This document shows, piece after piece, positions 1-6,000 of a DNA stretch of 15,711 nucleotides. Made by a program: the position numbers. Positions within the stretch are counted from its first letter, which is position 1. Each line of letters starts with the position of its first letter. This DNA comes from a virus (lineage: Duplodnaviria; Heunggongvirae; Uroviricota; Caudoviricetes): IMG/VR virus record IMGVR_UViG_2700989509_000007, one strand, 5' to 3'.

Positions 1-3000
1 GTAATGCAGCCAGGGATGCAACGACCGCAACAGAAAAAGCCCGGGAGTCAGCAGAAAGCGCACAGTCAGCGGAACAAAGCAGGATAGCGGCGGAAGAGGC
101 CGTAAACCGAATCCCCACCGTGGTGGGACCTCCCGGGCCAAAGGGGGAACAGGGGCCCGCGGGTCCTCAGGGGCCGAAGGGTGATAAGGGAGAGCGCGGT
201 GACACCGGCCCTGTCGGGGCAACCGGCGAACGGGGACCGGCAGGTGATGCTGGTCCGGCAGGCCCGCAGGGGCCGAAAGGTGACAGGGGAGAGCGGGGAG
301 AGACCGGTCTGACGGGAAATGCAGGTCCACAGGGTCCAAAGGGAGATACCGGTGCGGCAGGCCCGGCAGGCCCACAGGGACCGAAAGGAGAAACAGGTGC
401 GGCTGGCCCGGTGGGGGCAACCGGACCTCAGGGACCGAAGGGCGACCCGGGGGAGACACAAATCCGTTTTCGTCTGGGGCCGGCGAGCATTATTGAGACA
501 AACAGCAATGGCTGGTTCCCGGATACAGATGGCGCACTCATCACCGGACTGACCTTTCTTGACCCCAAAGATGCCACACGGGTTCAGGGACTGTTTCAGC
601 ATTTGCAGGTCAGATTTGGCGACGGGCCGTGGCAGGATGTCAAGGGGCTGGATGAAGTGGGCAGTGATACAGGCAGAACAGGAGAATGACATGAATATAC
701 TAAAAAAACTTATGCAGCGTCTGTGCGGTTGCGGAAAGCATGATGACCGTGAACACGGGGAGTTACTTACAGCACAGCTGCGACTGGGGCCGGCAGACAT
801 CCTGGAGTCAGATGAGAATGGCATTATCCCGGAGCAGGACAGGGTAATCACGCAGGTGGTGATACTGGATGCGGATAAAAAGCAGATACAGTGCGTGGTA
901 AGACCGCTGCAAATCCTGCGTGCTGACGGGACGTGGGAAAATATTGGCGGGATGAAGTAACCCGACAGCTTCACAAAACCGGAGTCCGGCTCCGGTTTTT
1001 GTTGTCATGTCATGGTGATGTTTGTTAAGAAAGTAAAGATTGATTCATTTTGAAGGTTGAAATGTATGCTATCACCATCTTCTGTAAATTTGGGGTGTTC
1101 ATGGAATTCTTTAACCAGAAGCCTGACTTCTCCTGACAGTCGTATTTTATCCTCTGTAAGGGATGCAGCTGCTAGCTCGGATAATGGGGCGCAAGTAAAG
1201 GTGGGCAACAGAACATATCGTGTTGTTGTCACTGATAATAAGTTTTGCGTTACAAGAGAAAGTCATAGTGGTTGTTTTACTAATCTGTTGCACAGGCTGG
1301 GATGGCCTAAGGGGGAGATTAGCAGGAAAATTGAGGTCATGCTGAATGCATCACCAGTGAGCGCTGCTATGGAAAGAGGCATTGTTCATTCGAACAGACC
1401 TGATTTACCTCCTGTTGATTATGCACCGCCAGAGTTACCGAGTGTGGACTATAACAGGTTGTCAGTACCTAGTAATGTTATTGGCAAAGGGGGGAACGCT
1501 GTAGTATATGAAGATGCTGAGGATGCAACAAAAGTCCTGAAGATGTTTACTACATCTCAAAGCAATGAAGAGGTGACAAGCGAAGTTCGTTGCTTCAACC
1601 AATATTATGGTGCCGGGAGTGCAGAAAAAATATATGGCAATAATGGTGATATTATTGGTATTAGAATGGATAAAATAAATGGAGAATCGCTTTTAAATAT
1701 TTCGTCCTTGCCAGCACAGGCTGAGCATGCTATTTACGATATGTTTGATAGACTGGAGCAAAAAGGAATTCTTTTTGTCGATACAACAGAGACAAATGTC
1801 TTATATGACCGCGCGAAGAATGAGTTTAATCCAATAGATATATCATCTTATAATGTTTCCGACCGTTCATGGAGTGAAAGTCAAATAATGCAATCTTATC
1901 ATGGCGGAAAGCAAGATCTTATTAGTGTGGTATTAAGTAAAATTTAGTAATTTTATCCAGTGTAGTGGATTTGTTGCATGGATGGAGTTGGTAACAAATT
2001 GTGTGGTTGGCAATTCTTGGCGGATCACGGAAATGGGCAATGTCGCTGAGGACTGGCAAATGGCTATGATCCGCTTTATTATCGGGTTTGGTGACCGCCT
2101 TGACGGTCACTTTTAAAAAAATCATTTTCACAGAGTGGTAAACAGGCTGCTAATAAGTAGCATTCTCAGGAGTCCTGATGCGCCCTACGTCCCTCAACTT
2201 GGTATTACATCAGTCATCAACGTCGAGCTCAATGTCAGATACAGATATCGAGTCTCTTGTAAAAGCATCGAGCGTTCAATGGATAAAAAATAATCCGCAA
2301 CTTCGTTTCCAGGGGACTGATCATAATATATATCAGCAGATTGAAGCAGCACTCGATAAGATTGGCTCTACAGAGACAGGGCGTGTACTCCTGAATGCTA
2401 TTGAATCAATATCCCGACTTAAATCAGAAACAGTGGTAATACACCTCAACTCTTCCAGACTAGGAGTTATGGCACATAGAGATATAGATGCTGAGAACCA
2501 TCGGGGGACTGGTTCCGATTTTCACTGTAATCTGAATGCAGTTGAATATCCCTGTGGGGAGGGGATTAGCGTGGTGGACTTTCATGCGACTATTGTTTTT
2601 CATGAGTTGCTCCATGTTTTCCACAATTTAAATGGGGAGCGTTTGAAAGTTGAGAGTTCCCGACCAGAATCACAAAAATACTCTCCACTTTTACTCGAAG
2701 AAGCCAGGACTGTTGGGTTGGGGGCTTTTTCAGAGGAGGTGCTTTCAGAAAATAAATTCTGCGAAGAGATTGGGATGCCCCGTAGAACCTCCTACCCGCA
2801 CGACTCAGCTCTTATTCATGATGACAATACAGTGAGTCTGGGATTCCAACAGGTAAGACTGCATCCATTGCTTTAGCTGTGTTTCTTGTGCTGAATATAT
2901 ATTGGTGGGGCAAACGGAGGCACACAAAACTTTGCACTGGATTGCAAGGCTTTGTGCTATTCCGATAGTGGTTCAGGTGGAGTACCCCACCTTTTCATCA

Positions 3001-6000
3001 AGCCAGTCAGCCCACCACTGCATCATTTCTCTGCGCTTATCTAGATACTGAGCGTGGTTGTAAATCCCGCGCACAGATCCGCCGTTGGCATGTGCCAGTT
3101 GCACTTCAATAGCGTCAGCAGGCCATTCGTGCTCGTTCATAATCGTGCTGAATTCATGCCTGAATCCGTGACCGCTTTCCAGCCCCTCATAGCCGATTTG
3201 TTTGATCACAAGCAGTACCGCGTTCTCGCAGATTGGCTTCTTCTTATCGTTGCGCCCGGCAAAAACAAACTCTGATACTGGTTTGGTGATTGAGCTTAGC
3301 GTAGTGAGAAGTTCAACCACCTGGTATGACATCGGGACCACATGAATTTTGCGTCCCTTCATCACACTGGCGTCGATAGTGATAATCCTGTTTTCAAAAT
3401 CGACGTTCTTCCATTGCATGGAACGAAGCTCTTTCGTTCTTAGGGCTGTGTAGCGTAAAACTTTGGTCGCAATGAGCGATACGATGCTTCCTGAAAATGT
3501 TGCCAGTGCTTTGTTGAATGCAGGGATCTGGTCTGCTGGAAGAAACGGGAAGTTCTTCTTGCGGTATCCTTTCATGGCGTCTGCAAGGTCAGGTGCCGGG
3601 TTATATTTAGCCCTACCAGTAACAATAGCGTAACGGAAAACCTCGCCACATCTTCTGCGTGCTTTGTTGGCTCGCTCCATTGCGCCGCGATCTTCAAATC
3701 TGCGGATTACTTCCAACAGTTGCATCGGCTCAATATCCTGAATTTCAAGGCCGCCGATGATGGGTAAAATGTCGTCATCAAACATTTTTGCAAGTTCATT
3801 TGCATAGCCTACTGACCAGACTTGCTTCTTGTGCTCGTACCACTCCTTGTAAATGGCGCTAAAGGAGTTGTTGTTAGACGAAGCCTTTTTCGCTTTTACC
3901 GGATCGATGCCAACCGAGATGTCTTTCCTCGCAATCCATGCTTTATCCCTTGCCTCCTGCAAAGTCATAAGCGGATATTTTCCTACGGTCAGTATTTTTT
4001 CCTTACCGTCAATCTTGTAGCGAAGCTGCCATACCTTTTTCCCTGATACAGGGACATAAAGGTACAGGCCATTACCATCGAGTAGGCGGTATGGTTTTTC
4101 TTTCGGCTTTGCTGCTTCAATCTGCTTAACGGTGAGCATGGGTAAAAATCCGGTGGGTAAAATTATTTTATCCACTTTTTACCCGTCATGGAGTGCGGCT
4201 GTCAACGATCTGACGCGAACCATGACGAACCGTGAATATACGGAAGGCTTGATATTCAGGGGATTTTGCGGACTGTTACGGATGAGAGCGAACTGATAAA
4301 TGGTGTCCCCTGCAGGAATCGAACCTGCAATTAGCCCTTAGGAGGGGCTCGTTATATCCATTTAACTAAGAGGACGTTGTTGCGTATTGATTTTGGTTGT
4401 TCACCATATGACTGATAATACCGTCTTTATGGTTTTAAAATCAAGGTGTAAGTTCGTTTTTGTTCATGGTTGATTATCTTCTTTTGCGTTGAAAAGTGTT
4501 TTGTTCACTTGCTAATGCGTACATATTGAGTACAGAATACATTATAAACTTGTGTACAGGATATAAAGCATTGGCACTGAGTGACACCAAACTACGAGGC
4601 CTATACGGAAAACCCTACTCTGGCCCTGCTGAAATCACCGATGGTGACGGGTTAAGTGTGCGGATTACTCCAGCAGGAACTATCACGTTTCAGTACCGTT
4701 ATCGCTGGAATGGTAAGCCAGTACGTCTTACTGTCGGGCGCTATCCGTCCACTTCACTGAAGGACGCACGTGTTATCGTCGGTGAGATGCGCGCATTGTA
4801 CATGAAGGGAGTTAACCCTAAAAATTATTTTGCCCCCAGTGATGGCGAATTGACATTAAAAGAATGCCTGGATCAGTGGTGGGATAAGTATGTTAGCGGC
4901 CTGAAACCCAATACTCAGACGCTTTATAGATCTGTTGTGTACAACACTATGTACACACAGTTTGAAGACTCGCCAGTTGCCGGTATCCCTGTATCGGCTT
5001 GGGCTCGCTTTTTTGACAAGCAAGAAAGCCTCAACAAGAAAAAGGCTCGTGTTCTGTTGTTACAACTGCGTTCAGTTATTAACTGGTGTATCAGCCGCCA
5101 GTTAATCCCATCATGCGAATTACTCAAACTTAGTGTAAAGAATATTGGGAAGAAACCAGATGTGGGGAGTCGCGTACTTACCTATACGGAACTGGCAAAG
5201 ATCTGGCTGACACTGGAGAACTCAAAAGTGGTTACTTCCAACAAGCTGTTACATCAATTGCTATTGCTATGGGGGGCCAGGCTTTCTGAGCTACGTCTCG
5301 CTACAGCCAGTGAGTTCAACATGGAAGATCTGGTCTGGACAACCCCTAAAGAGCATTCAAAGATGGGTAATATTATCCGGCGTCCGATATTTACTCAGGT
5401 TGAGCCTTATATTGAGCGATTGCTTAATATCGGATTTGATGTGCTGTTCCCTGGGCAGGAAATAGATAAACCTATTGACCGTTCGTCTGCTAATTTGTAC
5501 ATGAAAAAACTCAGGGCGAAAATTGATATTCCTGAATGGAGAACGCATGATTTTAGGCGTTCTCTGGTAACGAATTTATCTGGGGAAGGAATTATGCCCC
5601 ACGTCACTGAAAAAATGCTGGGGCATGAACTGGGAGGAGTGATGGCCGTGTATAATAAACACGACTGGTTGTCGGAACAGAAAGATGCGTATGAGTTGTA
5701 TGCTGATAAAATTTTCTGGCACGCTAAACAGCTCGGTTAATTCCTCCGGATTTAAGCCATTGTTCAACGGCCTGACGGCTATATCGCGCCGGATGAGTAA
5801 GTACTGGATCAGGGAATCCGTGTTTTTTTCGCAAATTATACAAAGCTGTGCGCCTTTTTTGTAACAACTCAGAAACTTCTTTTTCGGTCATTAAGTTGAT
5901 TTCCATAGTATGCTCTCCTTTTCTACATGTTTTTCAACAGCATAATAAACCGCCCGAAGGCGGTTGTTAGTTGATTGATGTACGGCGCATTTTTCGAAGG

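Follow-up and report, generated by a model that had tools for sequence, protein, structure and literature searches.

The tRNA-Arg(CCU) gene argW is very probably the attachment site for two independent lambdoid prophages, the P4-type integrases of which act at opposite ends of the tRNA. The window analysed here (the whole stretch of 15,711 nucleotides of the Caudoviricetes record IMGVR_UViG_2700989509_000007) contains a single tRNA gene called by ARAGORN, tRNA-Arg(CCT), on the minus strand at 4301–4375. This gene is intact and identical to argW of Escherichia coli K-12 at 75 of 75 positions. It is flanked by two tyrosine integrase genes, i.e., intS (2973–4139, minus strand) and a Φ24B-type int (4571–5740, plus strand). 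An earlier note, made from the sequence alone, had placed these two genes on either side of argW, and this was confirmed by ARAGORN, by the Pfam domains and by near-identity of the products to IntS and Φ24B Int; the coordinates of both genes are also exactly those of the RefSeq annotation of the closest genome (NZ_CP024056, offset 17000). That note had called the two integrases unrelated, which was wrong: they are distant homologues (24–29% identity over partial stretches, E 1e-10), and both have P4-type architecture. Judged by homology, the two-integrase arrangement is not a chance pattern. Direct observations of this analysis are the gene identities, the two cores, the relationship among four att sequences and the finding that the two elements are distributed independently; what we infer concerns whether both integrases are active in the source strain and whether either prophage is intact there. 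When the window was searched against 5,426 complete E. coli genomes, the best coverage was 60%, and the distal ends of the elements were studied in relatives. The window contains neither distal end, and both attR sites are deduced from those relatives.

The integrase at the 3′ side of argW is of the KplE1/CPS-53 type (P4-like). It matches K-12 IntS at 380 of 384 amino acids and contains the Pfam domains Arm-DNA-bind_3, Phage_int_M and Phage_integrase (E 1e-38). The gene starts 162 bp past the 3′ end of argW, a spacing equal to that in K-12, and is oriented away from the tRNA. The earlier note was right about the K-12 argW–intS layout. At the nucleotide level, intS is 95–96% identical to int of the free phages HK633, CUS-3 and N7. 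The 16-nt IntS core, CTGCAGGGGACACCAT, the sequence of which is given in PMC2951348, has one exact match in the window, at 4300–4315 (minus strand), consisting of the final 15 nt of argW plus one nucleotide. In K-12 this core is present at both ends of CPS-53, and the homology of HK633 to the window ends exactly at 4315. The stretch between the core and intS (4140–4299, minus strand; 95% identity to the K-12 spacer) comprises the P′ arm of the IntS attL and the intS promoter region; in K-12, the intS promoter overlaps attL (PMC2951348). This stretch contains short repeats: two copies of GGGTAAAA plus one inverted copy, and CGAACCATGA and CGAACCGTGA in tandem. These are candidate binding sites for IntS and TorI, the assignment of either protein to a given repeat being conjectural.

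In keeping with an IntS module, intS lies directly 3′ of argW in the same orientation, and its promoter is predicted within attL. The left element would carry a recombination module of the KplE1/HK620/Sf6 type, with IntS recombining at the 16-nt core at the tRNA's 3′ end. That intS adjoins the tRNA, is transcribed away from it and faces the tail-fibre and cargo end of the element (nleH1-1, nleD) follows from the position of attP, which in phages of this type is between xis and int. The left-side layout of the window is explained by the gene order of HK633, in which stf is followed, beyond a dividing point, by int, a xis-like gene and the early genes, all pointing back towards stf.

The integrase at the 5′ side of argW is that of Φ24B, a P4-like tyrosine recombinase with a TTG start, identical to ADN68388 at 389 of 389 amino acids and containing the Pfam domains Arm-DNA-bind_3 and Phage_integrase. 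The int gene of Φ24B is inverted relative to that of lambda, has its own promoter (pInt) and a TTG start, and the xis of this phage was identified experimentally (PMC3064807). In the window, xis (excisionase/RDF, 60 amino acids) is found at 5724–5906 on the minus strand, by its Pfam HTH_17 domain and by a position matching the annotated xis of HM208303; it is convergent with int, the two genes overlapping by 17 bp (5724–5740). It is followed by an early-left (PL-side) operon at 5967–14607 (minus strand), recognised by Pfam, by synteny with annotated prophages and by mosaic matches to Stx1a/Stx2a phages. The operon encodes DUF4222, DUF1627 and Ea22-like proteins, a DksA/TraR zinc finger, an AntA/B antirepressor, the anti-RecBCD protein Abc2, an SSB, a Rad52-like recombinase and products of small ORFs. 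The second integrase has its own xis and early operon, as stated in the earlier note. A divergent arrangement of a tRNA gene and int (OD) is rare, SIT and OD together making up <8% of 1,273 tRNA–integrase pairs (Panis et al., PMC2951348).

The crossover site of Φ24B has been defined experimentally as 24 bp, with an attB of 62–93 bp and an attP of 350–427 bp; on which side of the core the 49-bp B arm lies is not stated in the text of that paper (PMC7581858). In the window, this core, TTATATCCATTTAACTAAGAGGAC, lies at 4352–4375 as attL of the right prophage, and corresponds to tRNA positions 1–24, i.e., the acceptor-stem 5′ strand together with the D-stem and D-loop. When attL of the window was compared with attB of K-12, attP of Φ24B and attR of LC645445 and NZ_CP024056, the breakpoints of identity fell exactly on the edges of 4352–4375. 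In both LC645445 and the closest genome, the core recurs beside yfdC, and GenBank features mark the core as “attL” (HQ424691) or “duplication due to insertion” (LC645445). The adjoining stretch (4376–4570) is phage-derived: it fully matches the part of Φ24B attP that lies downstream of the core, and comprises the P′ arm of the right prophage with the int promoter region. Three direct copies of TTGTTCA and one GTACAG pair within it are putative arm-type sites. For the right-hand phage, the earlier note had left a choice between a site immediately upstream of argW and an unusual crossover point. The crossover is indeed unusual, being the 5′-terminal 24 nt of the tRNA, and it is not an upstream site; the stretch in which the repeat had been sought, 4380–4500, is purely P′ arm.

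In the mechanism proposed here, Int of the right element, a prophage of the Φ24B/933W type (Sepvirinae), would recombine within the 24-bp core. Because this core is tRNA positions 1–24, the prophage would come to lie between argW and yfdC, with int and the convergent xis proximal to the tRNA. Once integration has occurred, phage DNA would form the 5′ part of the tRNA gene and all sequence upstream, and the native argW promoter would be left at attR with a 24-bp fragment of the tRNA. Strand exchange would occur in or near the D-loop, and the remaining block of identity would rebuild the 5′ end of the tRNA, as a mirror of integration at the 3′ side. In the classical 3′-side integrators (P4, P22) the logic is the same, in that attP duplicates the tRNA segment displaced on integration and an intact gene is thereby rebuilt; in the right element, by contrast, it is the 5′ part that would be rebuilt, and the native promoter rather than the terminator that would be displaced.

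Two other explanations of the arrangement were considered. A single composite element straddling argW could carry both integrases and move as one. Among the 5,426 complete E. coli genomes, argW–intS is found in 1,865, a Φ24B-type int at argW in 222, and both integrases at argW in 151 (~3%), which is more than the ~76 co-occurrences expected (222 × 1865/5426). However, shared STEC ancestry readily accounts for this excess, and each integrase is also found at argW without the other: the Φ24B-type int alone in 71 genomes and intS alone in ~1,714. Each module also occurs by itself in free phages with their own attP (Φ24B; HK633 and CUS-3), K-12 has intS with native sequence on the yfdC side, and the partner on the left varies across strains. 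A composite element, which the earlier note had named as an outcome that would count against its reading, is contradicted by these observations and is extremely improbable. Hardly more probable is the explanation that the right phage integrates in the intergenic or promoter region between yfdC and argW, and that the sequence of the tRNA is not involved. This would fit a prophage that lies, as here, wholly on the 5′ side of an intact tRNA gene; in the literature such prophages are often called “adjacent to” or “next to” argW. However, the block of identity between attP and attB is tRNA positions 1–24, ending at +1 (at −1 in some phages), and, upstream of the tRNA, attB and attL are completely different in sequence. 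The preferred reading thus remains that of two independent prophages at opposite ends of argW. “Piggy-back” integration, as the earlier note called it, describes the locus insofar as two elements abut argW, but not in the sense of one att site being reused. True piggy-back integration would leave one core in three repeat copies, whereas the cores here (4300–4315 and 4352–4375) are different and 36 bp apart.

A third possibility concerns the state of the two elements, namely that both prophages are intact and inducible in the source strain, making argW an active site of double lysogeny; this is unlikely. In its favour, both integrase genes are full length, their products are 99–100% identical to enzymes shown by experiment to be active, the right element has an intact xis, and the IntS partner in strain 97-3250 looks complete. 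The left element begins in the window with the 3′ part of a side tail fibre gene (to 689, running off the start of the window) and a gene for tail-fibre C-terminal/assembly protein (691–960), both on the plus strand and mapped to the RefSeq annotation of NZ_CP024056; these are followed on the same strand by genes for two type III secretion (T3SS) effectors, the kinase NleH1-1 (1066–1947; Pfam OspG_kinase, E 1.3e-10) and the zinc metalloprotease NleD (2178–2876; Pfam Peptidase_M91, E 1e-12), annotated as nleH1-1 and nleD in the closest genome. Region 1–960 is 94.5% identical to stf/tfa of phage 434, and the nleD region is 99.4% identical to the b-region of the same phage. The earlier note had seen in adjacent integration a possible route to cargo exchange between prophages; the one footprint of exchange found was that of phage 434, a phage which integrates elsewhere. 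In the closest genome, however, the left element is IS-truncated, ending at IS3 copies; it lacks xis, attR and the early-left genes, and deletions have affected its late region, in which the lysozyme is fused to a tail tip fragment. A second 16-nt IntS core was found neither in the window nor in the 33 kb to the chromosomal csc/dsdA of the closest genome; in K-12, a second copy of the core (attR) and TorI are both present at the distal end. The left prophage is probably defective, and the word “prophage” may overstate what remains of it. The earlier note had allowed that one integrase might prove an isolated remnant with no distal att. For the left element this holds as far as the distal att in the closest genome is concerned, but ~19 kb of lambdoid DNA is still present there. 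The occupant of the left side varies by strain, being P22/HK620-like in strain 97-3250.

The right element of the window also speaks against a site of double lysogeny, as it has an IS66-family insertion. The C-terminal part of the transposase is encoded at 14873–15697 on the minus strand (Pfam DDE_Tnp_IS66, E 4.6e-81, profile positions 66–283), and the gene probably extends beyond the end of the window. Homology to related prophages breaks off near 14240–14280. The insertion may have rendered the right prophage inactive. The capacity for integration and for Xis-dependent excision is suggested by identity to the experimentally active Φ24B enzyme. The right prophage of the closest genome is ~64 kb long and is bounded by both copies of the 24-bp core. 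Its phage tRNAs and the nanS-p-like esterase are only ~530 bp apart, too short a distance for stx (in Stx-converting phages, stxA/stxB lie downstream of Q and the tRNA genes), so that this prophage appears to be stx-negative; the window itself stops short of the late region.

The arrangement of the locus is already known from papers on the att sites of Φ24B and on KplE1 IntS, from tables listing “argW–prophage–yfdC” and from GenBank annotations. The right element resembles Φ24B (vB_EcoP_24B, HM208303) in its Int (389/389 amino acids), 24-bp core, P′ arm, inverted int, TTG start and convergent xis. The argW-integrated Stx2a prophages from O157:H7 clade 8 and O121:H19 (e.g., VT2phi_272, HQ424691; LC645409–LC645451) likewise lie between argW and yfdC, a placement tabulated in PMC11688487 and PMC9729726. 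Unlike Φ24B and these prophages, the window is mosaic in the early-left region beyond ~5.9 kb (39–41% coverage by any single deposited phage) and has the IS66-family insertion. The left element resembles KplE1/CPS-53 of K-12 in its IntS (99%), 16-nt core, 162-bp spacer and orientation of int, the IntS/TorI recombination module being common to KplE1/CPS-53, HK620, Sf6, CUS-3 and HK633. It differs in its cargo, nleD and nleH1-1 with lambdoid tail fibres being present where K-12 has gtrABS, and in the absence of the distal attR and TorI from the closest genome. In highly virulent STEC lineages (O157:H7 clade 8, O121:H19), argW is among the main chromosomal entry sites of Stx2a phages. Attachment of the Stx-type phage at the 5′ end of the tRNA and of the IntS-type phage at the 3′ end would allow joint occupancy without competition or displacement. 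The exact junction sequences are available for typing and for excision assays, although none of this is new.

The sole remaining novelty is a possible promoter for argW in the phage arm. With integration at the 5′ end, the sequence upstream of a host tRNA gene would derive from a phage, and this is the one loose end of some biological interest. A candidate sigma-70 promoter (TTGATT-18-TATTAT) on the minus strand at 4444–4415 points at argW, and the mature 5′ end of the tRNA lies ~39 nt downstream of it. It matches the consensus at 9 of 12 positions, and the scan returned three sites where 1.4 were expected by chance, which is not above chance. Conservation of the P′ arm gave no support either way, as the arms of six loci differ at two positions only and are too invariant to be informative. 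The phage arm could supply the promoter of argW, a consequence which may be unexamined in the literature; the Φ24B att papers never mention a tRNA (PMC7581858, PMC3064807). Classical sublocations of integration within tRNA genes are the anticodon loop, the T-loop and the 3′ end (Williams 2002, as summarised in bioRxiv 10.1101/2020.11.02.365908). For islands of Klebsiella pneumoniae, a D-loop/5′-end sublocation upstream of a tRNA-Arg gene has been described (bioRxiv 10.1101/2020.11.02.365908); these are other elements in another species, and their likeness to the right prophage lies in the description of the sublocation. The combined proposal, which is tentative and somewhat more doubtful than not, is that in lysogens phage DNA takes the place of the native promoter upstream of the sole tRNA-Arg(CCU) gene, that the arm then sets the AGG-decoding capacity of the cell or argW is silenced, and that strand exchange takes place in the D-loop. 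If this were true, the 8-nt D-loop, flanked by the inverted repeat of the D-stem, would be a fourth, mirrored sublocation. In the window, AGG accounts for 7.0 per 1000 codons of the right-element genes; average use of this codon in E. coli is several-fold lower.

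There is a single tRNA gene in the window (ARAGORN, whole window): tRNA-Arg(CCT), at 4301-4375 on the minus strand, identical to K-12 argW at 75/75 positions. Given this orientation, its 3′ end is toward the left and its 5′ end toward the right. On the 3′ side, intS (2973-4139, minus strand; Arm-DNA-bind_3, Phage_int_M and Phage_integrase domains) encodes a product identical to K-12 IntS at 380/384 amino acids, and starts 162 bp past the tRNA 3′ end, a spacing equal to that in K-12. On the 5′ side lies the int of the right element (4571-5740, plus strand; Arm-DNA-bind_3 and Phage_integrase domains), whose product and the Stx phage Φ24B integrase are identical at 389/389 amino acids. 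Its 3′ end is overlapped by the gene for a 60-amino acid excisionase (5724-5906, minus strand; HTH_17), the counterpart of the Φ24B excisionase. The coordinates in the earlier note are those of the RefSeq annotation of the closest genome, NZ_CP024056; the two integrases on either side of argW are real, and their interpretation as adjacent prophages was essentially correct. The note's description of the integrases as unrelated has to be amended: they align over partial stretches at 24-29% identity (E 1e-10) and have a P4-type architecture in common. The two-prophage arrangement at argW is itself well documented and already known: argW is a standard Stx-phage site (PMC8065619, PMC9997748, PMC8767318), published tables give the location as “argW - prophage - yfdC” (PMC11688487, PMC9729726), and divergent tRNA-integrase pairs are rare, yet recorded (PMC2951348).

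To locate the right-hand crossover, four junctions were compared: attL (the window), attB (K-12 yfdC-argW), attP (across the ends of the Φ24B record) and attR (LC645445, a deposited argW Stx2a prophage). All four have in common a 24-bp block, TTATATCCATTTAACTAAGAGGAC, at window 4352-4375. To the left of the block attL equals attB and to the right it equals attP, the opposite being true of attR, and the identity breakpoints are exactly the two edges of the block. The adjacent base (window 4376) is G in the window, Φ24B, LC645445 and strain 97-3250, and A, the attB base, in NZ_CP024056 and VT2phi_272, extending the att identity there to 25 bp; this is why the “attL” feature of VT2phi_272 is 25 bp long. 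The LC645xxx records label the same 24 bp “duplication due to insertion”. NZ_CP024056 has the block again, without a mismatch, about 64 kb further on, and yfdC-mlaA follows it directly. Thus, the right element integrates in the 5′ end of argW, between argW and yfdC. Of the two possibilities raised earlier, an intergenic yfdC-argW site is ruled out by the four-way comparison, and the “unusual crossover point” is the argW 5′ end, 4352-4375, as the core.

Experiments on Φ24B have defined a crossover site of 24 bp, with 62-93 bp as the minimal attB and 350-427 bp as the attP (PMC7581858). This attB, which is unusually long, is comparable in length to the tRNA gene together with a short flanking stretch. 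The word “tRNA” is absent from both Φ24B recombination papers (PMC7581858, PMC3064807); “argW” and “intS” are absent from the former, and no “intS” was found in the latter. A D-loop/5′-end sublocation has been described in Klebsiella, where islands lie upstream of a tRNA-Arg gene (bioRxiv 10.1101/2020.11.02.365908).

The left-hand core is that of KplE1/CPS-53, CTGCAGGGGACACCAT (PMC2951348). The window has a single copy of it (4300-4315), and K-12 has one at each end of CPS-53. The match of HK633, a free phage with an IntS-type integrase, runs from window 2912 and ends exactly at 4315, an independent marker of the inner edge of this core. Inside one 75-nt gene, 36 bp separate the two cores.

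Could both integrases belong to a single composite element? Among 5,426 complete E. coli genomes, 1,865 have intS at argW, 222 have the Φ24B-type int and 151 have both, so each module is found without the other. Each also occurs alone in free phage genomes, and the left partner varies: in strain 97-3250 the occupant is a P22/HK620-like prophage, apparently complete, that has tailspike and acyltransferase genes, and in NZ_CP024056 it is a lambdoid element that is degraded and carries effector cargo. Separate occurrence, one-module phages and the varying partner exclude a composite.

The gene orders follow the layouts of the two phage types. In HK633, the side tail fibre gene converges on int, and attP lies between int and a xis-like gene, beyond which come the early-left genes, all pointing the same way as int; integrated int is thus placed at attL, pointing off the tRNA, toward the tail-fibre/cargo end. 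The left side of the window (tail fibre genes, nleH1-1, nleD, convergent intS) fits this layout exactly. This layout is the “unusual organisation” of Panis et al., with the intS promoter overlapping attL (PMC2951348). In Φ24B, int is inverted relative to lambda, starts with TTG and has a promoter of its own, and xis is convergent and PL-controlled (PMC3064807); attP is located upstream of int, and the right side of the window matches this arrangement. Past int and xis are Ea22-like, DksA/TraR, AntA/B, Abc2, SSB and Rad52-like recombinase genes; compared with deposited Stx phages, they form a mosaic. The recombination module (11128-12652, minus strand) is P22-like: Abc2 anti-RecBCD, SSB and a Rad52/Erf-like annealase. 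The argW prophage of 97-3250 has exo/bet/gam annotated at this position, and that module is also listed for many O157:H7 matches; this shows module replacement among phages with one common int.

The distal ends of both elements lie outside the window and were studied in NZ_CP024056. There, the right prophage has a core copy at both ends. The left element ends at IS3 copies that cut short both the phage replication gene and cscK of the chromosome, and the IntS core does not recur before csc/dsdA is reached; the left element is thus probably a defective remnant with an intact integrase. At the window's right edge is an IS66-family transposase gene (14873-15697, minus strand; DDE_Tnp_IS66, E 4.6e-81); as homology to related prophages ends near 14240-14280, an IS has inserted here into the right prophage's early-left region. 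The NZ_CP024056 argW prophage seems to be without stx, because only about 530 bp separate its Ile/Arg/Arg tRNA genes from a nanS-p-like esterase gene (288-820 of the NZ_CP024056 stretch L010). Three tandem ISEc20 (IS110-family) copies follow its Q-like antiterminator (stretch L001, 44477-48577).

Upon Φ24B-type integration, the tRNA positions up to the crossover and all upstream DNA would become phage-derived, and the native argW promoter region would be left at attR with a 24-bp tRNA fragment. The attP/attB identity ends at tRNA position +1, the mirror image of 3′-side integrators, in which identity extends to the tRNA 3′ end. This edge suggests selection for rebuilding a working argW, which would imply that the phage arm holds a promoter. 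One candidate, TTGATT-18-TATTAT (4444-4415, minus strand), matches the consensus weakly and no better than chance, and conservation of the arm, which is too invariant, is uninformative on the promoter. The core-type sites and the overlap region could plausibly lie at the D-stem inverted repeat around the 8-nt D-loop; candidate arm-type sites in the phage arm are three direct repeats of TTGTTCA and a pair of GTACAG repeats. Both prophages beside this AGG-decoding tRNA gene are rich in AGG codons: right-element ORFs (4571-14607) have 7.0 AGG and 9.2 AGA per 1000 codons, and intS has 5 of each in 389 codons.

Window 1781-3065 and the b region of phage 434 (OL657226.1, 23519-24803) have 99.4% identity. 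The stretch holds fragments of NleH and of an IS, nleD and the final 93 bp of intS (2973-3065); in phage 434 this intS-derived segment is annotated as a small ORF, CPT_434_30, with CII sites, right before the lambda-type attP/int. This looks like a trace left by exchange of effector cargo between phages of the IntS and lambda-Int types. A short IS256-family (IS1414-like) transposase fragment (about 1995-2116), between nleH1-1 and nleD, is kept in NZ_CP024056 and phage 434. The deposited “attP” of HK633 (JQ086377, 2894-2974), described as ykgJ-yagV-like, lies between stf and the int 3′ end; it is probably misplaced, because the stretch homologous to the argW attL, which contains the 16-nt core, is instead upstream of int, at 4228-4403.
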